Shown one piece after another: positions 16,386-32,200 of a stretch of DNA of 64,000 nucleotides (position 1 is the first letter of the stretch; each line of letters starts with the position of its first letter). A program made the position numbers and the translations under genes. Location: contig OY970067.1 of assembly GCA_963705305.1 (NCBI GenBank), positions 4,032,001-4,096,000 of the forward strand, read 5' to 3'. Origin of the DNA: an uncultured Methylomirabilota bacterium. Lineage in GTDB: Bacteria; Methylomirabilota; Methylomirabilia; Methylomirabilales; 2-02-FULL-66-22. Under the pieces are notes generated by a model that saw nothing but the letters and a program-made list of their open reading frames with translations, was not told where the DNA came from and searched no databases.

Positions 16386-17025
16386 CATGCGGGTGGACCA
16401 ATCAGTGGGGGCAGGCCAAGGTATGGGGATGACCTCGCGTGAACGTATGCTGGCGGCTTTATCCCATCGGCAGCCCGATCGGGCTCCGCTGGACCTCGGC
16501 GGGACAAGAAACTCCACGATGGTATTGGAAGGCTACGAGCGGATTAAGGCACATTTCCTCATCTCGGCGCCGTCCGTGATAACCGAGCGGATGATGCAGG
16601 TGGTGGAGATCGATGAGGGGGTCCTCACTCTCCTGGGGATCGATACCCGGGCGGTTTTCCCGAGCGGGACGACGCGGGGGCTAGCGGCCGACCTTGGACC
16701 ATGCCGGTATCGCGACATGTGGGGCGTAGAACGAGTCCAGCCCGAAGGAAGCCACTATTGCGATCTGGTGCTCTCACCCCTCTCGGGAGACGTGACGGAC
16801 GACGGCATCCTGAAATACCCCTGGCCGGATCCCGACGACCCCGGATTCACTGCCGGCCCGAAGGATCGCGTGGGCTGGATCCGGGAGCACACACAGGCTG
16901 CGTCGGTCCTGGCGCTCCCATCCGCCTTCGTTCACATCAGCCAGTACCTGCGCAGCTTCGAGGACTGGTTTTGCGATTTCGTCGCGAACCCGAAACGGCT
17001 GAATATCCTCTTTGACGCCATCCTA

Positions 17026-18193
17026 GTCTACCGTGTCACACAGATGCCATCTTATGCAGCACTGCTCGAGCCCGCTCGACTTTCGCCAGGATGTCCTCCA
17101 CCTTGGCCGTCCAGGTGAACGACCGGGGGTGGCGGTTGTGGTGTGCGATGAAGGCCTCAATGGCGGCGATGAGGTCGGCGACGCTCTTGAAGACGCCCCG
17201 GCGGAGCCGCTTGGTCGTGAGCTCCCGGAACCACCGCTCGATGAGATTCAACCACGAGCTGCTGGTCGGAATGAAGTGCATGTGGAAGCGTGGGTGGCGG
17301 GCGAGCCAGCGCTGGACCGCAGGGTGTTTATGGGTGGCGTAGTTGTCCACGATCAGGTGGAGGTCCAGGTCGGGCGGGGTCTGCGCGTCGATCAGCCGGA
17401 GGAACCGGAGCCACTCCTGGTGCCGATGCTTGGGCAGGCACGTGCCGATGAGCTGGCCCGTCACGAGCCCCAGGGCGGCGAAGAGCGTGGTCGTGCCGTT
17501 CCGCTTGTAGTCGTGGGTCAGGGTGCCGCACCGGCCCTTCTTCAGCGGGAGGCCGGGTTGGGTGCGGTCGAGCGCTTGGATCTGGCTCTTCTCGTCGGCG
17601 CACAGCACCAACGCGTGCTCAGGGGGATTCAGGTACAGCCCCACCACATCGGTCAGCTTCTCGAGGAACCGCCGGTCGCGGCTCACCTTGAACGGGCGGA
17701 CCCGATGCGGCTTCAGGCCGTGGGCCTGCCAGACCCGGTGCACGGTCTTCGGGCTCACGCCGACCGCGGCCGCCAGGGTCCGCGTGCTCCAGTGGGTGGC
17801 GGCGGGCGGCGCGCTGGTTGTCGTCAGGGTGACGATGCGCTGCAGGACCGCCGGGGCGATGGCGGGCGTCCGGCCGGGGCGCGGGGCATCCCGCTCGATC
17901 CCGGCCAGCCGCTGCTGGGCGAAGCGAGTCCGCCACCGACCCACACACTCGCGATCCGTGTCCAGGGCCCGGGCGACCTCGTCGTTCCGCTGCCCCGCCG
18001 CCGCGCGCAGGACGATCTGCGCCCGGCGCACGAGGCGCGCGGGGGTGCGCCGCCCCCGTGCCCAGCGTTCCAAGATGGTGCGTTCCTGCGGGCTCAGCAC
18101 AATCGGCACCGCCACACGCATGGCTTGCTCCTCCTCACCGAGGAGCATACCAGAGTACGTACTATAAGTCACCGTATTTATGACACACTAGAC
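17026..18193 (-). mobile_element. IS630 family element
   Basis: TA duplication (17024-25 / 18194-95, within CTAG); imperfect IRs GTCTA..GTGTCA. Confidence 0.92.
17036..18121 (-). CDS. IS630 transposase
   Basis: [43 protein letters not shown]. Confidence 0.93.
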
Positions 18194-18815
18194 TAGATGT
18201 CACGATGGCCATCGCCAGGCGCCAACTCCAGGAGGTCGGCCACGAGGTGGACGTGGTACTCACCTCGGATGATCTGGGCTCCCAGAATGATTTCCTAGTG
18301 AGCCGCGAGCACTATCTCAGGTACATCAAGCCGAGGCAACAGCGCCTCTTCCGGCAAATCAAAGATCTCACGCCGGCCAAGGAGGTCTTCCACTCCTGCG
18401 GCGCGGTGGCTTCGATCATCGATGACCTGATCGAGATGGGTGTGGACGGGCTGAATCCCGTTCAGGCCCAGGCTACTGGGATGCAGCCGGCCGAGTTGAA
18501 GCGGAAGTACCGGGGGCGGATGGCTTTCTGGGGCGGGACGGATGCGCAGGGCATTGTCCCGCGTGGCGGCGTGGCCGAGGTGAAGCGGATGGTCGAGGAG
18601 TTGATCGAGGCCATGGGTGAAGGGGGCGGGTACGTTTTCTCCAACTGTCACAACATCCAGCCGGACGTTCCCCTGGAAAACGTACTGGCCATGTTCGAAC
18701 ACGCCCGGGAGTACGTTCCTTCGTTTGCACACTAGCGTACGTCTAACAAGCCCCTGTTAAACAGGGCAAACAGGGCATCTGAATCCAGAATACCCACAGG
18801 ACACCGGAGGACCCC

Positions 18816-23252: not shown

Positions 23253-23608
23253 ATGACGACGCCCCCGAAACTTCAACTCCGGTCGATCTTCGACCTCCTG
23301 AAGGAGCGGTTCTTGGTTCCGTCGTACCAGCGGGGCTATAGGCGGCCCGCGCGGCAGGTCGAGGCGTTGCTCGACGATCTGGCGGCGTTTCAGTTGTCGT
23401 CGCGACAGAGCAACCCCAACACCTTCTACTGCCTGCAGCCGGTCGTCGTCCGTCGGCGCCCCGAGAACGAATGGGAACTTGTCGACGGGCAGCAGCGATT
23501 GACCACGATCTTCTTGATCCTGCGTGCGCTGCGCGATGTGGCGAAGATGCTCAGCCGAGACTGCTACGAGATTGCCTACCAGACGCGCGAAGGAAGCGCA
23601 GAGTTTCT
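23253..23608 (+). pseudogene. DUF262 (GmrS-like) N-terminal domain truncated by a transposable element
   Basis: VPSYQRGYR, YCLQPVVV, ELVDGQQRLTT. Confidence 0.85.
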
Positions 23609-23704
23609 TGGGCTAACAACCAGATCATGAGCAAAAGTCCGTGAGGAAAATGGGTGACACTCCGACACCGAGGTTCCCCGGGGGAACCGAAAGGAGTGTG
23701 ACCC

Positions 23705-25591
23705 ATGGAGAGGATCGGCAAGGCAGGAGGGAGGCGGAAGCAGAGCCGGGGGCCGCGGAAGGCAACGCGGCGGGCGGGTGGGGCGCACCCCCACGTCCAC
23801 CCGTTCGAGGTCCGGCGCAAAGCGGTGCAGCTCTGCCTGGAGGAAGGGTTCCCCCCCAAGCAGGTCGCCCGCGAACTCGGCGTCGGCTTCAGTACGCTCG
23901 GGGCGTGGGTGCGCCGGTATCGCGCCGAGGGGGAAGCGGGCCTGCAGGCGAAGCCGACACGGCCGCACCGGCAGCGCCCGAAAGTGGCCCCGGCGGTGAA
24001 GGCGGAGGTCGTCGCCCTCAAGCGGCGCCACCCCGAGGCGGGGATCCAGAAGATCAGCCAGTTCCTGCGGCGCGTGCTGTGCCTGCCGGTGAGCCGGGAG
24101 ACGGTGCGCCGCACCCTGCACGCGCACCAGCTCCTCAAGAAGCCACGCCCCAAACCCCAGCGGAACCCGGCCCGACCGCGCTTCTTCGAGCGCGCCACGC
24201 CGAACCAGCTCTGGCAGACCGACATCTTCACCTTCCGCCTGGGCGGCAAGAACGCTTACCTGATCGGCTTCCTCGACGACCACTCCCGCTACGTGGTGGG
24301 GCTGGACGTCTTCCGCAGCCAGACGGCGGAGCACGTCCTGGAAGTGTACCGCCGGGCGGTGGCGGAGTACGGGGTCCCCAAGGAGCTGCTCTCCGACCAG
24401 GGCCGGCAGTTCTCCAGCTGGCGCGGGACCACCCGGTTCGAGGCGGAGCTCCGGAAGGATCGGGTGCACCACATCAAGAGCCGCCCGCACCACCCCATGA
24501 CCCTGGGCAAGCTGGAGCGCTTCTGGAAGACGATCTGGGAGGAGTTCCTGGCGCGCGCCCAGTTCGAGAGCTTCGAGGCGGCCGGCGAGCGGATCCGGCT
24601 CTGGGGGACGCACGACAACCACCGGCGGCCCCACCAGGCCCTGGAGGGGCTCTGCCCGGCGGATCGCTTCTTCGGCATCGCCCAGGAGCTCCGGCAGGTG
24701 ATCGAGCGGGGCATCCAGGAGAACGTGCTCGAGCTCGCGCTCCGCGGGCAGCCCCAGAGCCCCTTCTACATGGTGGGCCGGCTGGGCGAGCAGTCGGTGG
24801 TGATCCGGGCGGAGAAGGGCCGCGTGAAGATGCTCGTCGATGGCGAGGAATCGCGACCACAGCAGGAGGTGACCTACGACCTGGAAGGAGGGGCCCGTGA
24901 GCACGGAAATCCCAGCCAAACCGGACCCGCTGCGATACAATGCCCAGCAGCGCGTGCAGGCGGTGCTGTCGCTCTGGACCGAGCGGCGGCGCCCGGGGGA
25001 GGTCTGCCAGGAGCTGGCGATCAGCCCGAAGGTGCTCGCCCAGTGGGAACAGCGGGCGCTAGCAGCGATGCTCCAGGCGCTGGCGGCGCCGACGCGCCGC
25101 GACCCGGGCCCCGCGCTGAGCCCGAAGCTGGAGCGCCTGCTCGCGCGGCAAGCCCTGCAGCAGCAGAGCCGCCTGGCCCGACTGGAGCAGCGGCTCACCA
25201 AGCTCCAGGAATCGAAAGCCCCACCGCCGCCCACCAAGTAGAGAAGGCCCGCGGGGCGGGAGGACGCGATGCGCGAGCCGACGGCCAGTCCCCACCAGCA
25301 AGCCCTGGCCCGGCAACGGGCGCAGCTGATCATGCAGGCGCGGAGCGGGGTGGTGAGTGCCCAGGAAGCCGCCCGGCAGCTGGGGGTCTCCCGCAAGACG
25401 GACTCCAAGTGGGAGCGCCGGGCCCTGGCGGCGATGGTCGCGGCCCTGGGCAACCGGGGCCAGGGGCGGTCGGCGCAGCCGCACGACCTGGAGAAGGCGG
25501 CCCTCCGACGCCAGACCCAGGAGCTGCAGGCCCAGCTCACCGTCCTGCAGCAGACGGAGCGGCTCCGGCAGGTGCTCGCGCAGCCGGATAA
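23705..25591 (+). CDS. IS481-like transposase (HTH + rve) with a low-complexity C-terminal read-through
   Basis: PNQLWQTD, FLDDHSRY, LSDQGRQF, GKLERFWKT, RPHQAL; conserved-looking part ends near 24900. Confidence 0.85.
   Translation: MERIGKAGGRRKQSRGPRKATRRAGGAHPHVHPFEVRRKAVQLCLEEGFPPKQVARELGVGFSTLGAWVRRYRAEGEAGLQAKPTRPHRQRPKVAPAVKAEVVALKRRHPEAGIQKISQFLRRVLCLPVSRETVRRTLHAHQLLKKPRPKPQRNPARPRFFERATPNQLWQTDIFTFRLGGKNAYLIGFLDDHSRYVVGLDVFRSQTAEHVLEVYRRAVAEYGVPKELLSDQGRQFSSWRGTTRFEAELRKDRVHHIKSRPHHPMTLGKLERFWKTIWEEFLARAQFESFEAAGERIRLWGTHDNHRRPHQALEGLCPADRFFGIAQELRQVIERGIQENVLELALRGQPQSPFYMVGRLGEQSVVIRAEKGRVKMLVDGEESRPQQEVTYDLEGGAREHGNPSQTGPAAIQCPAARAGGAVALDRAAAPGGGLPGAGDQPEGARPVGTAGASSDAPGAGGADAPRPGPRAEPEAGAPARAASPAAAEPPGPTGAAAHQAPGIESPTAAHQVEKARGAGGRDARADGQSPPASPGPATGAADHAGAERGGECPGSRPAAGGLPQDGLQVGAPGPGGDGRGPGQPGPGAVGAAARPGEGGPPTPDPGAAGPAHRPAADGAAPAGARAAG
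24897..25241 (+). CDS. Small HTH/coiled-coil accessory protein
   Basis: GGAGG RBS, AVLSLW..RR..EVCQELAI...L.QWEQRA, coiled-coil C-terminus. Confidence 0.65.
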   Translation: MSTEIPAKPDPLRYNAQQRVQAVLSLWTERRRPGEVCQELAISPKVLAQWEQRALAAMLQALAAPTRRDPGPALSPKLERLLARQALQQQSRLARLEQRLTKLQESKAPPPPTK

Positions 25592-25604
25592 AAAAAACCC
25601 CTGA
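25269..25604 (+). CDS. Small HTH/coiled-coil protein (OrfA-like)
   Basis: SAQEAARQLGVSRKT..KWERRA; ends in an A8 run. Confidence 0.7.
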   Translation: MREPTASPHQQALARQRAQLIMQARSGVVSAQEAARQLGVSRKTDSKWERRALAAMVAALGNRGQGRSAQPHDLEKAALRRQTQELQAQLTVLQQTERLRQVLAQPDKKNP

Positions 25605-25614
25605 GGTGGCCGCG

Positions 25615-26679
25615 ATGCTGATCCCGACCTTCACCCAGCTGAAGCACGACGTGCGCTGGCCCTACGAGCGCCTCTGCCGGGTCCTGGGGGTGCCCTATGG
25701 GACCGTCCGGCGGTGGAAGCAGCGCCTGGCGCAGGGCCAGCCAGCCCGGTTCCCGCCGGGGCCCAAGAAGGTGGCGCCGCTGCGCCTGGACGAACTGCGC
25801 GGGACCGTGGCCCGCCTGGACCACGGCCGCCGGCGCAGCCGAGGCGTCGGGGCGGTGTACCGGCAGTTCCACCCGCAGGTCTCCCGCCGCACGCTGCAGG
25901 CGCTGACCGAGACGCTGCGGCGGCAGCGGGCCCAGCAGTGCCAGGCGGCACTCTGCCACATCACCTGGCAGGTGCCCGGGTTAGTCTGGTCGCTGGACGA
26001 CGCGGAGCTGGCGCGAGGGAGTTCGCCTCTCCTGCGCCTCCATCAAGCGCAGGATCTCGCCTCGCGCTATAAGTTCACACCCTGGGTGGGAGAGCGAATC
26101 TTCGGAGAATCCGTGGCTGCTCGGCTGGAACACCTGTTCTTGCAGTATGGACCGCCGCTGGTGCTCAAGCGCGACAACGGCTCCAATCTCAATCAGCACG
26201 CGGTCGAGGAGGTGCTGGCCCGGTACGGGGTCCTGCCGCTGAACTCGCCTCCCCATTACCCGCCCGACACCGGCGGGATGGAGCGCGCGGTGCGGGAACT
26301 CAAGACGCCGCTGGTGGCGAAGCTCCGCGCCAGCGGTCCGATCCCGGAGTCCCAAGTGCAGAGCTGGGCGGCCCTCTTGGCGCATGACCTGAACCATCGC
26401 CGCCGTCGCTCTCTCCAGGGGGACGTGGCCTGCCGGGTGTTTCAGGATGCCAGGCCAGCCCTGCAGGCGTATACTCGTCGCAAGCGACGGGAGGTCTTCG
26501 AGGAGATCAACGAACTGACCCGGACGCTCATGGAGGCCCAGACGGATTGCACCCCCCGTCACGCCGGAACGGCCCGGCGGCTGGCGGTGGAAGCCTGGTT
26601 ACAAAAACACGGGGTCATAAGCATCACTCAGAACCACAGAGTGTTACCCATTTCCCTCGAAGAAATCGCTCATAATTAG
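25615..26679 (+). CDS. Second integrase-core (DDE) transposase
   Basis: VWSLDD, QDLASRYK, LKRDNGSN, MERAVRELK, LNHRRRRSL. Confidence 0.8.
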   Translation: MLIPTFTQLKHDVRWPYERLCRVLGVPYGTVRRWKQRLAQGQPARFPPGPKKVAPLRLDELRGTVARLDHGRRRSRGVGAVYRQFHPQVSRRTLQALTETLRRQRAQQCQAALCHITWQVPGLVWSLDDAELARGSSPLLRLHQAQDLASRYKFTPWVGERIFGESVAARLEHLFLQYGPPLVLKRDNGSNLNQHAVEEVLARYGVLPLNSPPHYPPDTGGMERAVRELKTPLVAKLRASGPIPESQVQSWAALLAHDLNHRRRRSLQGDVACRVFQDARPALQAYTRRKRREVFEEINELTRTLMEAQTDCTPRHAGTARRLAVEAWLQKHGVISITQNHRVLPISLEEIAHN

Positions 26680-26723
26680 GTTGGCCCCACACACCCCTCG
26701 GCGAGCGGGAACGCGACCCGCTC

Positions 26724-27563: not shown

Positions 27564-28889
27564 TCATTCCGCACCTTTCAGCCCGTTGCGAATTTCGGCC
27601 ACAGCTTGCCGAATTGCCGCCCTGAGGTCACCACGGTCTTTGTCTGTAAGTTCCTGGAACGGCACGTACTGTTGTGTCTCCGTATTGGGGATGCCATCTA
27701 GCGCAAATCGCTTGTTGATCCTGTGCAGAGCTTGCCAGAAGTTCGAGGCGATGTGGGCCGCGGTAGTCTGGTCCATTTTCATGTTCGCAAGCCTGGTCGG
27801 AAGATACCGCGCGTTGAAGACCCCGCCGTCCTTCCCAAATCCGAGCAGGCTGGCACTTCTCGCTTCCTCTGCTGGATCGGGAAACTTGAGCATCAACGAC
27901 GCGGTAGCGAAGGTGGTTTCGAGACCGAGTTCTTGGCGGAGGTCAGTGTAGAGCGTCCGGATTGCCTTTGTATTGTCGTCTCCAATAGCTCCTTTGAGGG
28001 CGGCAAGGAAGACTTCTTCAGTCAAGGCCTGTTTCGATACCCCAGGTCCGGTTGGAGAAACCATGGATTTCGATTCCACACGCAACTGCTCCTGCAAGCC
28101 CGTCGCATACTCGATTCGGATATACGCACGCTGGACGGGTTCGACCTCCTGCACGATCTCTGGAACGACGAGGAGTCCTTTCTGGCCGGGCATGTTGTAG
28201 CAGCGAAGTGCGACTAGCCCGATCGAGTAACGCAGGTGAGAGGAATTCTCGCACAAGTAATCAACCAACTGCTGCAGCTGGGTCGTGATACCATCCCCCA
28301 CGATTATTGAGATGATGTCCCCCACATGCAAGGCCGCATTGACGGTATCTGTAAGGTCATCTTCCGCGATCTCATCACCAGCCAGGTCTGCGATCGCTGC
28401 CGCTAGAGAGAGGCCCCGCTTTTTCTCGGCCAAGAAGCACTTTTCGGACTTTACAAAGTCACGCCACGTCGTTTCAAGCCACGCAAAATCCAACGTGGCA
28501 AGCTCTCTCGTGTACTCGACGACCTGGCCAAACACATATCGACGGGCCTCGGCATTGCGCCAGAGCTTTGCCTCGACCACGACGGGATACCCGCTGGTGC
28601 TGAGGTAGAGATTGTCGATTGCATTGCCGCTCGGCAGCGGCACCTCCCGGCCAATGCAGAGCAGGTCCTCGGCATCGGCGCGCAGGAACTTTACCGGGAG
28701 CAGGGCGGGGTGCACCGCGAGCAATTCCTTGATGAAGGATTCATCGAATTGATCGTGGGCCTTGGGAACCCGGGTTAGCAGATGCCGAGTATATTGCTCG
28801 AACCTCGCTCCGGTCGATGCGGCGTTGGCCCCCGTCTTGGCATTATCATCAAGCGTGAGGAGTACAGGGTCTGCGGCCTGCCTGGGCAT
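27564..28889 (-). CDS. PD-(D/E)XK endonuclease domain protein (NucS/DUF91-like)
   Basis: GREVPL..G.IDNLYL...G.PVVVEAKL..N.EARR.VFGQVVEY. Confidence 0.75.
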   Translation of the reverse strand: MPRQAADPVLLTLDDNAKTGANAASTGARFEQYTRHLLTRVPKAHDQFDESFIKELLAVHPALLPVKFLRADAEDLLCIGREVPLPSGNAIDNLYLSTSGYPVVVEAKLWRNAEARRYVFGQVVEYTRELATLDFAWLETTWRDFVKSEKCFLAEKKRGLSLAAAIADLAGDEIAEDDLTDTVNAALHVGDIISIIVGDGITTQLQQLVDYLCENSSHLRYSIGLVALRCYNMPGQKGLLVVPEIVQEVEPVQRAYIRIEYATGLQEQLRVESKSMVSPTGPGVSKQALTEEVFLAALKGAIGDDNTKAIRTLYTDLRQELGLETTFATASLMLKFPDPAEEARSASLLGFGKDGGVFNARYLPTRLANMKMDQTTAAHIASNFWQALHRINKRFALDGIPNTETQQYVPFQELTDKDRGDLRAAIRQAVAEIRNGLKGAE

Positions 28890-28975: not shown

Positions 28976-31900
28976 CTATTCCTCTATTAGATTCCGTGTG
29001 CATTGGCCTGCCCGGACCGAAAAGAGGCCGGCATACTTCACCGGGGCCCCGGTGAGCGCTGCCCACTGCTTGGCATACTGGCGGACCTGATTCCCGTAGA
29101 GCGCGACGAGCGTCACGGCATCCACCTGATCCGTCTTGTAGTCCACCAACCCCCAGCCATCGGCGGACCGGAACGCGAGGTCAATGACCCCGTGGAGGAT
29201 GGACGGCGGTCCATCGCCATTGGATACCTTCACGGCGAAAGGCACCTCGACCAGGCGCTCCTCGGCGGCCATGGCGCGGCGCCAGAGATCGGAGGCCATC
29301 ACGCGCTCCTCGGTGTCGAGCGCCTCGGGGATCACCGGCTGCAGCTCCGCTTGCTCCACGGTAAACCAACGCGCAAGGCGCTCCAGGTGAGCGCGGTCGC
29401 AGTGCGGACCTCGGAGGGCCTGCTCCAGGAGGGCGTGGACCAGGTGGCCCCAGGCCATGCCGGTATCCGGCTCGCGACTGTGCCCCGCCTCCGGGGGCTG
29501 CGCAGGTCTGGCCCCCCGATGAGCAGTCCCGGTGACCGATTCGACTCGCCAGGACGGCGTAGCCGCCTGTCTCAGTCCTTCCTCACGGGCGGTCTGGGCA
29601 GCCATTCGAGCCTGGGGGCCGAGATCGCCCACCTGTGCGGGCGGCGCAGCGACCGCACCAGGGATCGCAAGGAGCGTGGCGTCCTTGAGGTACGGGGCCA
29701 GCGGCTCCCAGGGACACGTGGCCCGCCCGCCCGCGCTCCCGTAGCGGCTGATGACCAAGAGTTCCTTGGCTCGCGTCGCGGCAACGTAGAGGAGGCGGTG
29801 CTCCTCGGCGGTCACGTAGGCAAGCTCCGCGGCCTCATGCTCGGCCCAGCCTTTCGGGACAGCCAGCAACTTACGCCGCCAGTCGCCGACCGGTCGCGTG
29901 ATCGGGAGGAAGCCCACCGCCCGGATGCCATCCCGGAGGATCCGGGCGTCGGCCCGGGCCTTCACACCGCCGAGGGGGTCGGCCAGGAAGACAGTAGAGG
30001 CTTCCAGTCCCTTGGCCTTGTGGAGGTTCATGATCCGGACCACGTTCCGCCGTCCGGGTTCGAGCGGCACGGCATCGATGTCGGTGGATTCGATGTCCTC
30101 CTCCAGGGCGAGGGCGGCGTCGGCGAGGCTGCCCCCGGTCTCGGTGATCTGGCGCACGCGGTCCACCGCGTGGAGGAGGTTCCCCGTCGCCCCGCCGCCC
30201 AAAGTCGCCGTGGCGGCCTTGGCCAGGAGGCCGGTCTCCTCCAGCGCGCGCTCGACCGCGGCAGGCGCGGGCAGGCTTCGGGTCCACCGGAACATCGCCT
30301 GGAGGGCCCGGAGCGCCTCGGCCACCGGACCGGTCGCCCCCTCCGGCAGGGGTGCAGTCAGCAGCAAGCTTAATCCCACATCGCGGTGGCGGAAAAGCGC
30401 CTCGTCGCTCAGACCGAAGAGCGCCCCCCGAAGCACGCCGACCAGGGCCGTCGCGTCCCCCGCATCGCTCAGGGCCTGGAGGAGATTGGCGAGCACCCGC
30501 ACGCCTGGGGACTCCGCAAAGGCGGCCCCGCCGCTCACCTCCACGGGGACCTGCAGCGCCTCCAGGGCCCGGGCGTAGACGGGGAGCTGCTGCTTCTTCC
30601 GGGTCAGGATGAGAAAGTCCCCCCACTGGCCCTTGCCGCCCAGCACTGCCTTGTGGATGAACCGGGCGATCGCCTTCGCCTCGGCAAGGACCATATCCGC
30701 CCGGGGGCCGGTCCCTGGAATGTCCAGGATGCGGAGGCCAGTGGTCGCTGGATCGCCCTTGGCTCGATTGGGATCGGGATCCAGGCCGCCGAAGGCCGGC
30801 TGCTCCTGGGTCGCGGTGTCCGGGAAGAAGTTGGGGAAGACCCCGTTGCCCCACGTGCAGAGGGCGGGATCGGCCCTGAAGGAGGTCGTCAGGGGGATCA
30901 CCTGCCCGCCGGAGTCCTCGATGAGCTGGCGGACGCGGGTGTAGGTGTCGATGTCGGCCCGGCGGAACCGGTAGATGGACTGCTTCGGGTCCCCCACGAT
31001 GAAGAGGGCTCCCGGGCGAAGCGGGACGCGGGTCCAGTCGCGCTCCGCCGCCCCGGCGGCCGCTAGGAAGAAGATGACCTCGGCCTGGATCGGATCGGTG
31101 TCCTGGAACTCGTCCACGAAGAGCCACCGGTACTTCTGCTGGAGCGCGGTGCGGACCTCGGGCTTCTCCCGCAAGAGGTGGGCGGCCCGCTCCAGGAGAT
31201 CCCCGTAGTTCAGGGCAACGGCCCGCGCCCGCGCCTGTGCTGCGAACTCCCGACCCCCGCAGAGCAAGGTCATGGCCAGCCGATACACATACTGGCGCCA
31301 GTTCGCCAGGAACGGGGTGACGGTCTCCACCTGGAAGCGCTGAACGAGTGTCGCGACCTTCTCCGCCGCCGCCTTCTTCTGCTTGGGATCGGGATGCCAC
31401 CACTTCTGCGTGGCCTTGAATCCCCCCTCCCAGTCGGCGAGCAGATCCGCTAGGCCGCCCGGCCGGGAGCGGTCGGCCACCCGGAGCCGGCCACTGAATC
31501 CCTGCATGGTCTGCTGGATCGGGCAGGTGGTCTCTGGTTCGATTGGCCCGGGAAGGCAGCCATTGAGCGCCGTCCAGAACCGATCAAGGGCCTGCCACGC
31601 CGGGGCCGGATCCGGCGCCGTCCCCTCGCCCGGCGGGAACTCGATCTCCGCATAGGTGCACACGATCCGGAAGGCGCCATCCAGGTCCGGCGGCCTGACG
31701 CCCGCGTCGAGGAGATCACGGAGGGTGGGCGAGCCTGCCGCGCGCTCGCGGTCGAGATACAGGCGCCAGGCGCGCTCGCGCTGCTCCTGGTCGGCCGTCT
31801 CGTCCAGCTCCGTGAAGCCGGGCGCGACGCCGGCCTCCACGGGGCGTTCCCGGAGCAGGTGGGCGCAGAAGGCGTGGATCGTGCCGGCAAACAGCCGCTC

Positions 31901-32200
31901 CAGGCGGGAGAGCGCCTGCCGGATCCGGTCCTGGCGGGCCGTGCCTGTCTCTTCGGCGAGCCGCTTCTCCAGCGCGATCTGGAACCGGCCACGCAGCTCT
32001 GCAGCCGCCTTGCGGGTGAAGGTGACGGCGGCCATGCCCTCGATCTCGTAGGCCCCGGCGGCGATGCCTGCCGCCATGCGCCGGGCCAGGCTCTCGGTCT
32101 TGCCCGATCCGGCGCCGGCCTCGACGAGGAGGTTCAGGTCGAGCCGGGCCTCCATCAGGTCCCGGGCAGCCGCATCCCGAAGCCGCTTCCGCTCAGGCAT
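28976..32200 (-). CDS. AddA-like UvrD helicase with a C-terminal RecB-type nuclease
   Basis: AGAGSGKT, TFTRKAA, VDEFQDTD, VGDPKQSIYRFR, HKAKGLE, YVAATRA, GVIDL...VDYKTD. Confidence 0.92.
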   Translation of the reverse strand: MPERKRLRDAAARDLMEARLDLNLLVEAGAGSGKTESLARRMAAGIAAGAYEIEGMAAVTFTRKAAAELRGRFQIALEKRLAEETGTARQDRIRQALSRLERLFAGTIHAFCAHLLRERPVEAGVAPGFTELDETADQEQRERAWRLYLDRERAAGSPTLRDLLDAGVRPPDLDGAFRIVCTYAEIEFPPGEGTAPDPAPAWQALDRFWTALNGCLPGPIEPETTCPIQQTMQGFSGRLRVADRSRPGGLADLLADWEGGFKATQKWWHPDPKQKKAAAEKVATLVQRFQVETVTPFLANWRQYVYRLAMTLLCGGREFAAQARARAVALNYGDLLERAAHLLREKPEVRTALQQKYRWLFVDEFQDTDPIQAEVIFFLAAAGAAERDWTRVPLRPGALFIVGDPKQSIYRFRRADIDTYTRVRQLIEDSGGQVIPLTTSFRADPALCTWGNGVFPNFFPDTATQEQPAFGGLDPDPNRAKGDPATTGLRILDIPGTGPRADMVLAEAKAIARFIHKAVLGGKGQWGDFLILTRKKQQLPVYARALEALQVPVEVSGGAAFAESPGVRVLANLLQALSDAGDATALVGVLRGALFGLSDEALFRHRDVGLSLLLTAPLPEGATGPVAEALRALQAMFRWTRSLPAPAAVERALEETGLLAKAATATLGGGATGNLLHAVDRVRQITETGGSLADAALALEEDIESTDIDAVPLEPGRRNVVRIMNLHKAKGLEASTVFLADPLGGVKARADARILRDGIRAVGFLPITRPVGDWRRKLLAVPKGWAEHEAAELAYVTAEEHRLLYVAATRAKELLVISRYGSAGGRATCPWEPLAPYLKDATLLAIPGAVAAPPAQVGDLGPQARMAAQTAREEGLRQAATPSWRVESVTGTAHRGARPAQPPEAGHSREPDTGMAWGHLVHALLEQALRGPHCDRAHLERLARWFTVEQAELQPVIPEALDTEERVMASDLWRRAMAAEERLVEVPFAVKVSNGDGPPSILHGVIDLAFRSADGWGLVDYKTDQVDAVTLVALYGNQVRQYAKQWAALTGAPVKYAGLFSVRAGQCTRNLIEE

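Follow-up and report, generated by a model that had tools for sequence, protein, structure and literature searches.

A multicopy insertion sequence that encodes two different DDE transposases

RESULTS

One mobile element encloses four open reading frames

To our knowledge, DDE transposases and retroviral integrases act as multimers of one catalytic polypeptide, with a short target duplication as their hallmark. Why, then, does a locus in the 64-kb stretch of DNA analyzed here (the window) hold two different DDE enzymes between a single pair of inverted repeats (IRs) (Table 1)? An earlier note, made from the sequence alone, had proposed a non-nested element of 3.08 kb with four open reading frames (ORFs) and imperfect IRs of about 50 bp. 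Its bounds proved exact: two further full copies in the same genome (G000:C1 512285-515367 and 941729-938647) and the window copy align from first to last base, over 3,083 bp and with 97.7% identity. Miniature derivatives, consisting of the ends only, lie at separate sites of this genome, which also contains three remnants that retain nothing but the left end and one copy truncated on its left side. Among the genome copies, all nine left ends start with TGGG and all seven right ends close with CACA, and the flanks are unrelated. A nested insertion was rejected on the basis of the full-length copies, the conserved gene order and the joint occurrence of ORF1 and ORF4 across loci (see below), and no internal insertion sequence (IS) ends were seen within the element. 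Positions 23609 to 26691 are thereby confirmed as a single, multicopy, mobile IS. The viral contigs searched contained no match to the element, and a plasmid search returned only three weak, partial matches for ORF4 and a best match of 38% for ORF1.

Table 1. Positions of the element and its features in the window
Feature	Position	Strand	Description
Host GmrSD_N gene	23253..23608	+	Domain match; cut off at left end of element
Whole element	23609..26691	+	3,083 bp, without target duplication; from end-to-end alignment of genome copies
Left IR	23609..23662	+	54 bp; inner conserved box 23643-23662
ORF1	23705..25591	+	628 aa; HTH-HTH-DDE core at about aa 35-395; triad D173, D231, E271; W at E+7
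ORF2	24897..25241	+	114 aa; HTH plus helical/coiled-coil; +1 frame relative to ORF1
ORF3	25269..25604	+	111 aa; HTH plus helical/coiled-coil, OrfA-like; paralogue of ORF2
A8 run, ORF3/ORF4 junction	25590..25597	+	ORF1 stop codon overlaps start of run
ORF4	25615..26679	+	354 aa; second DDE enzyme with own N-terminal HTH; triad D128, D187, E223 (D-35-E); K at E+7
Right IR	26639..26691	-	53 bp; contains ORF4 stop

The two IRs are identical in 37 of 54 columns, with 18 of 20 positions matching in the inner box and 8 of 15 in the outermost part; other reverse-strand 20-mers in the 64-kb window reach at most 14 of 20 matches to the inner box. The outer 15 bp have different consensus sequences on the left and on the right, each conserved over its own set of unique ends (39 and 51, respectively). 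In distant members, both ends start with TGT. Over the unique ends of both sides, the first base outside is biased (T in 1 of 90).

Relationship of the ORFs to known families

ORF1, rightly recognized in the earlier note as IS481-like, scores 236.9 bits against the NCBIfam IS481 model NF033577 (cut-off, 224), groups with two annotated IS481 transposases in our tree (UFBoot 99) and has a predicted model resembling IstA (Z 17.9). No stop follows its transposase domain; the frame runs on over ORF2 and ORF3 to a total of 628 codons, adding a tail, about 230 aa long and of low complexity, that overlaps both genes in another frame. Given its own-frame dN/dS of 1.9 and its shortness in some distant members, we rejected the tail as a conserved protein domain; it is only the absence of a stop on which selection acts. 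Fusion of ORF1 to ORF4 through a -1 shift was likewise rejected for this clade, where ORF1 terminates before the A run can be read. At three other loci (L171, L122 and L147), ORF1 reads past the A run.

The two short ORFs with a helix-turn-helix (HTH), suspected from the outset to resemble each other, are paralogues (35% identity over 85 aa; profile probability, 98%). ORF3 is followed by an A8 run, in which one A fewer would give a 469-codon ORF3-ORF4 fusion. Runs of A6 to A9 separate ORF3 and ORF4 at 80 of 80 loci, and at the 77 loci scored, the frame of ORF4 relative to that of ORF3 was +1 in 68, -1 in 7 and identical in 2. In IS1447, +1 slippage on A7 to A9 has been demonstrated (PMC6211511), and we infer that +1 slippage probably occurs at the A8 run as well. 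Since this run ties ORF3 to ORF4, an orfA/orfB-like arrangement is indeed present in this half of the element.

ORF4, the second integrase-core protein, has a predicted fold of the retroviral-integrase type and, as had been noted, a stop within the right IR (26677-26679). Its integrase core matches Pfam rve below the cut-off (E=1.6e-6), and, scored alone, ORF4 reaches 63.2 bits against the NCBIfam IS481 model and 62.4 bits against the IS3 model (cut-off, 160), below both family cut-offs. It forms a separate clade on a long branch, outside the IS3 references; ORF3 and ORF4 align onto the OrfA and OrfB portions of the IS3 model. The original claim that the organization matches neither IS481 nor IS3 therefore stands for the element as a whole but not for its parts, with ORF1 belonging to the IS481 group and ORF3/ORF4 having the orfA/orfB layout that in IS1447 goes with slippage. 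The literature searched contained no two-transposase IS of this kind and no described IS group matching the unit.

The two DDE enzymes are inherited together

ORF1 was present at all 60 metagenome ORF4 loci that had at least 900 nt upstream, and ORF4 at seven of eight further loci found by means of ORF1 (39 to 46% identity), many of the loci counted coming from one close clade and hence not being independent. Across the host phylum (251 genomes), the ORF1 matches all lay upstream of an ORF4 locus, the two exceptions being a truncated remnant and a match located where its contig ends, and neither these genomes nor the metagenome loci contained the two enzymes apart with IRs of their own. A single decayed locus (L177) carries ORF1 without ORF4. 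Gene order is retained down to 29 to 41% identity. Neither triad varies in any of 56 elements (six acidic residues in all), nor does the ORF4 triad in any of 117 diverse relatives; at locus L171, a Glu aligns at the first Asp of ORF4. Pairwise distances for ORF1 and ORF4 are strongly correlated (r=0.955; as high in none of 500 Mantel shuffles), and dN/dS values over 37 elements were 0.13 for the ORF1 core, 0.20 for ORF2, 0.23 for ORF3 and 0.29 for ORF4. At the level of sequence comparison, purifying selection on all four ORFs and near-obligate joint inheritance of ORF1 and ORF4 are thus shown, and the locus very probably represents one element with two working enzymes. This bears out part of the earlier interpretation, whose heteromeric or two-step transposition system is a candidate arrangement.

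The window copy has some unusual residues (ORF1 Y304D, ORF3 YY to DS, and ORF4 Y218D/N219T), for which sequencing error is an unlikely source, as copies A and B share them. Contigs of run X1 are identical to the window at positions 24522-24913 and 24930-25476, a match that is not independent since X1 may be the source sample.

The enzymes differ seven residues after the catalytic Glu (E+7). All 12 reference cores, both IS481 references included, have K or R at this position, as does ORF4 in 50 of 56 elements and 102 of 117 relatives, whereas ORF1 has it in none of 56 (W in 48, L in 4, Y in 3 and F in 1). The corresponding K159 of HIV integrase cross-links to viral DNA ends (PMC3185514). By analogy with the retroviral integrase, the E+7 residue would contact the donor end, and the difference between ORF1 and ORF4 favors a split of labor by substrate.

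Insertion sites lack target duplications

Testing of lengths from 2 to 45 bp revealed no target duplication longer than 2 bp at any of 39 unique two-ended sites, 24 of which lie on metagenome contigs or in fragmented genomes, where assembly may join flanks from different copies; 2-bp matches occurred at the chance rate. At the five distant loci with recognizable ends (L172, L173, L044, L141 and L070, with the right end of L070 placed by eye), which were kept out of 19 after 14 had been dropped for ends that were internal TG or absent, duplication never exceeded 1 bp. As a control, 23 of 25 sites of a 1,520-bp repeat family from the genome of the window retain duplications of 4 to 6 bp. Since several small repeat families of that genome (ends unverified) also show few or no duplications, this control rests on one large family.

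Additionally, interrupted host genes did not continue across the element at any of 11 sites, including none of 5 in long-contig genomes, and in both cases searched the missing gene half was not found elsewhere in the genome. For the gene truncated at the left end in the window, a genome search yielded neither a second GmrSD_N match nor a GmrSD_C match. None of 20 other genomes from the genus matched a ParA-like flank, and relatives of a gene beside a miniature derivative (MITE) matched just part of that gene. No empty site emerged from a DNA search of 21 genomes, from blastn of 39 joined flanks or from a protein comparison within the genome itself. Such flanks would arise if target DNA were deleted at insertion itself, which may be the case.

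DISCUSSION

A proposed division of labor and its rivals

The missing duplication, together with the broken host genes at the flanks, suggests that the two enzymes divide the job. We tentatively regard the element as an autonomous IS of IS3/IS481 ancestry that requires two DDE enzymes with different jobs, a reading that comes close to an even chance. It is possible, though a little less assured, that ORF4, alone or as ORF3-4, joins the ends, that ORF1 cuts other DNA and that insertion replaces the target. Transcriptional slippage at the A run would then yield an OrfAB-like ORF3-ORF4 enzyme alongside free ORF3 and ORF4; having kept the donor-end lysine, this enzyme would nick the CA-3' ends and then join them. 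ORF1, with an intact triad but an altered end-contact helix, would cut different DNA, in the target or on the second strand next to the ends, so that the ends would be joined at separate target positions rather than across a short staggered cut, the DNA in between being replaced instead of duplicated. ORF2 and ORF3 may bind the inner IR box and either scaffold or damp the complex. That such replacement is the normal pathway, with one of two different active DDE enzymes serving the ends and the other re-purposed for target cutting while a piece of the chromosome is swapped for the element, we consider doubtful.

Rather unlikely is a split by steps within an IS3-type copy-out/paste-in pathway, in which one enzyme makes the figure-eight and circle and the other integrates, insertion being clean (blunt or with a short duplication) and the flanks broken later by adjacent deletions or recombination between copies. 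The ancestry of both enzymes fits such a scheme, IS3 and IS481 elements forming a circular intermediate with abutted ends; among the matches listed from contigs of four runs, in which rare forms drop out, no circle junction was found. The ORF4 regions of the genome copies are mosaics of one another, so recombination between copies does take place, and the left-end remnants and the truncated copy also agree with this scheme. Adjacent deletions are common in some ISs, more so with fused OrfAB, and either they or inter-copy recombination could remove duplications (PMC11708052). However, the scheme needs loss of the duplication at all 39 sites and of the other half of all 11 genes, against a control family that kept 23 of 25, and no cross-copy flank matches of at least 4 bp occurred among 16 and 18 ends.

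Uncoupled joining with one enzyme per end, ORF1 on one and ORF3-4 on the other, would explain the flanks too and could account for outer IR segments that differ from each other while each is conserved. We judge it improbable: the CA-3' and the bias in the first outside base are common to both ends, which fits a single joining enzyme, no donor-end K/R is present in ORF1, and distant members have TGT at both ends. Still less probable is that catalysis falls to only one protein, the fold of the other being conserved for its role as a structural or regulatory partner. The long branch and subthreshold scores of ORF4, or the loss of K/R in ORF1, might be read in this way, but dead transposase partners usually lose their catalytic acidic residues, which here are invariant in both enzymes. 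Finally, it is hardly credible that an IS481 and an IS3-like element, acting independently, form a nest by chance or a fixed composite here, for although the placement of ORF1 with IS481 references and of ORF4 in its own clade may point to an ancient merger as the origin of the element, no internal ends were seen, gene order is kept, distances are congruent, the ORF1 frame is interlocked with ORF2-3, and co-occurrence of ORF1 and ORF4 across loci largely refutes the idea.

Comparison with known systems

Tn7 has a heteromeric transposase, TnsA plus TnsB, which needs an ATPase and target selectors and in which TnsA is not of the DDE/RNase H type. The likeness lies in two nucleases per element, likely cutting different bonds; here, in contrast, both enzymes have a predicted integrase fold and there is no ATPase, TnsA, TnsC and TniQ being absent from the four ORFs, for which Pfam and NCBIfam give just HTH and integrase-core families. 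IS21 and IS66 are multi-ORF elements in which accessory genes likewise adjoin the transposase gene (and the ORF1 model is IstA-like), but they have one DDE enzyme, partnered by an ATPase or small noncatalytic proteins, instead of two.

IS481 elements have a single transposase ORF and a left end starting with TGT. The element studied here shares the TG...CA ends and, in ORF1, membership in the family, but differs in its four ORFs with two conserved DDE genes, in the E+7 residue lost from ORF1, in the TGG or TGC left end of this clade and in the absence of a target duplication, given for IS481 as 2 to 15 bp, mostly 6 (PMC10045372). With IS3 and IS1447 it shares the layout of ORF3/ORF4 (A7 to A9 run, second frame +1) and, with IS3, the D-35-E spacing and K at E+7 of ORF4. 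Unlike IS3, it carries two extra genes upstream, one for a DDE enzyme and one for another OrfA-like protein, and its ORF4 falls below the family cut-off when scored alone, has its own N-terminal HTH and forms a separate clade; the 3- to 5-bp duplication listed for IS3 (PMC10045372) is lacking.

A job split of this kind between enzymes was not found in the literature searched. The conserved overlap of 230 ORF1 codons with two other genes is a second, putatively regulatory feature. This 3-kb element, in which both DDE triads are invariant and the end-contact helix of one enzyme is changed, would be a natural experiment in splitting the steps of transposition. If insertion does replace target DNA, bacteria of soil, peat and sediment would lose genes to these elements unnoticed, and IS finders that rely on duplications would overlook them or set their bounds wrongly.

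Copies and Ends of the Element

The four-ORF element, comprising an IS481-like DDE gene (ORF1), two paralogous HTH/coiled-coil genes (ORF2 and ORF3) and a second DDE gene (ORF4), has exactly the boundaries proposed in the earlier note (see the table). The genome to which the window belongs (G000), a single contig of 5.65 Mb, contains two further full copies, which have the same sequence and share 97.7% identity with the window copy, as well as one left-truncated copy and three remnants with the left end only. Three additional derivatives in this genome (1,119, 542 and 138 bp) have both ends and little or no coding DNA, and since such end-only derivatives occur at separate sites, the two ends are implied to move as a unit. 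The left and right inverted repeats (IRs) match in 37 of 54 columns, including 18 of 20 in an inner box that is retained in relatives down to 36 to 44% ORF4 identity.

Coordinates of the features discussed in the text
Feature	Position	Strand	Remark
Element	window 23609-26691
ORF4	window 25615-26679		contains 71 of the 72 differences between the window copy and its two sisters
1,174-bp repeat	window 17023-18196 (G000:C1:4049023-4050196)		one of 9 near-identical copies; CTAG-bounded ends
441-aa ORF	window 27564-28889	-	no Pfam match; adjoins helicase-nuclease-like ORF
Helicase-nuclease-like ORF	window 28976-32200	-	1,074 aa; named by eye
Variant element	L008:4379-5594		one hybrid HTH gene

In the window copy and its two sisters, both catalytic triads are intact; nearly invariant residues have changed in ORF1 (Y304D), ORF4 (Y218D/N219T) and ORF3 (YY to DS), and, judging by these substitutions, the three copies may therefore be weakened. 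The differences within ORF4 combine into a mosaic that also involves the truncated fourth copy, the result of recombination between copies. Among the lineage-private substitutions of the window element, A>C/T>G changes are enriched (21 of 66, versus 10 of 81 in one relative and 16 of 157 in another), and several of these fall on conserved Tyr codons.

ORF1 and ORF4 Form One Unit

Among the best 80 of 538 confirmed metagenome loci, which are not independent because many represent one clade at 60 to 86% identity, ORF1 was present at all 60 loci where 900 nt or more precede ORF4, and the 18 loci without an ORF1 match have at most 839 nt there. In the reverse test, with up to 8 candidates scored per genome, ORF1 matches were found in 10 of 251 host-phylum genomes, all at ORF4 loci, bar one contig-end match and one truncated remnant. 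Matches were also found in 8 of 401 genomes of the phylum containing L004, a relative from the Terriglobia; ORF4 lies downstream at seven of the eight new ORF1 loci (two of those with a single HTH gene), and at one, ORF1 is internally deleted and ORF4 is missing. A check of DDE conservation, suggested in the earlier note, showed the triads of ORF1 (D173, D231, E271) and ORF4 (D128, D187, E223) to be invariant in 56 distinct elements; among further loci, the first ORF4 Asp is replaced by Glu in L171. Pairwise distances of ORF1 and ORF4 correlate across the 56 elements (r=0.955), and dN/dS across the four ORFs is 0.13 to 0.29 (37 close elements). The hybrid HTH gene of the L008 variant apparently arose by deletion between ORF2 and ORF3, and loci L170 and L171 represent a distant variant with one HTH gene.

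Two Different DDE Enzymes

ORF1 passed the IS481 model, and its core is predicted to fold as HTH-HTH-RNase H followed by a small sheet at the C terminus (mean pLDDT, 72.9), resembling retroviral integrases, IstA and TnsB (Z, 17 to 18). The predicted ORF4 fold is confident (pLDDT, 93.5) and also resembles retroviral integrases; identity between ORF1 and ORF4 is only 28%, over 127 residues. In a midpoint-rooted core tree (164 columns, 12 references), from which we claim no order of events, two annotated IS481 transposases fall together with the ORF1 proteins (UFBoot, 99), and a separate clade on a long branch holds the ORF4 proteins (UFBoot, 100). The HTH of the paralogous ORF2 and ORF3 proteins is related to the first HTH of ORF1 and of ORF4.

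The residue seven positions past the catalytic Glu is K or R in all 12 reference cores (4 annotated IS3/IS481 records and 8 unannotated DDE frames). ORF4 likewise has K or R in 50 of the 56 elements and, among 117 diverse relatives, in 102; in ORF1 this position is W, L, Y or F in every one of the 56. Because K/R is kept in one enzyme and lost in the other, and because K159 of HIV integrase, which lies on the same helix as E152, can be cross-linked to the end of the viral DNA (PMC3185514), this analogy suggests that ORF4 might act on the CA-3' ends, and ORF1 on a different substrate.

Overlapping Reading Frames

In the same best 80 of 538 loci, ORF1 continues without a stop at the ORF2 start in all 62 ORF1-bearing loci, with ORF2 (58 of 58) and ORF3 (61 of 61) in frame +1 relative to it. 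This tail spans 91 to 349 codons, mostly about 230, and ends 24 to 30 nt upstream of the ORF4 start. Synonymous resampling gave 1.6 expected stop-free tails versus 60 observed among 69 (related) loci, and 71 of 120 database relatives are 615 to 645 aa long. The tail sequence is unconserved, and the tail is short in some distant members. Our guess is that it may tether the finished core to the transcript for cis action, or that ORF4 initiation may be coupled through it to the termination of ORF1.

A run of 6 to 9 A's marks the ORF3/ORF4 junction in 80 of these 80 loci, and of 77 scored, ORF4 is in frame +1 relative to ORF3 in 68 and -1 in 7, whereas 2 have both ORFs in the same frame. In IS1447 (PMC6211511), OrfAB is made via +1 transcriptional slippage on 7 to 9 A's, and OrfA and OrfB are also made separately; by analogy, we infer that ORF3 and ORF4 would yield a +1 slippage product beside the separate proteins. 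The protein database includes in-frame ORF3-ORF4 fusions of 469 aa, which may be homopolymer errors. At three loci, L171 (A7), L122 and L147, the ORF1 frame reads through the A run, and a -1 shift could join both DDE domains into one chain; locus L042 has a 1,011-aa frame with both domains, via an upstream indel.

Target Sites and Flanks

Of 39 unique two-ended sites, 15 of them from the three genomes of 1 to 7 contigs, 35 lacked a duplication and 4 had a 2-bp match, the same rate as for mismatched end pairs (at least 2 bp in 152 of 1,482). Cross-copy end matches of at least 4 bp were absent from G000 (16 ends) and from G020, another genome with element copies (18 ends), and of 90 ends examined only 1 had T as the first outside base. 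The control was a 1,520-bp repeat family of G000, which had 4- to 6-bp duplications at 23 of 25 sites listed, 3 of the 23 with an offset of up to 3 nt; smaller families, with unverified ends, had them at 0 to 2 of 3 to 9 sites. Duplications of 5 to 8 bp flank three of five insertions nested in G020 element copies. Five copies in that genome (L072 to L076) are interrupted by a 2.28-kb insertion that was classed as IS21-like by eye, on the basis of its ORFs. It occupies four different positions around ORF2-ORF3, so that this region is an apparent hot spot.

None of 11 Pfam-named host genes cut at an element end resumes beyond the opposite end, as judged by eye and, in four cases, by score against a paralogue; 5 of these sites have less than 135 nt of opposite flank, 5 are in long-contig genomes, and four further cases were omitted (three without a Pfam name, one probably uncut). 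The missing parts of the window's cut GmrSD gene and of a cut peptidase S13 gene in G020 were not found in their respective genomes. A codon-usage test gave in-phase coding on both sides at 0 of 30 sites versus 188 of 400 random breakpoints; this test is weak, since a single genome served to train its model and 18 sites came out as noncoding. Several points count against a reading of these sites as replacement at insertion, in which target DNA between the joined ends is swapped out and not duplicated: no empty site was found, the element copies are mosaics, wrong flanks can be joined in short-read contigs, and duplications are known to be lost through later adjacent deletions (PMC11708052).

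The 1,174-bp repeat elsewhere in the window, weakly similar to the N-terminal half of ORF1, is probably another IS. Together with the cut GmrSD gene, the 441-aa and helicase-nuclease-like ORFs look like an accessory region.

Relation to Known Families

The earlier note had placed this organization outside both IS481 and IS3. On the tested features the element does fall outside both, although in its workings it resembles members of the IS3/IS481 group. Searches of the literature for an insertion sequence with two transposases, or for duplication-free insertion, yielded no such element, and we consider it improbable that the element has already been entered in ISfinder. While its transposition mechanism is something that we infer, the element itself is real and conserved, and, as far as searched, its two-enzyme architecture is not that of any IS family described.
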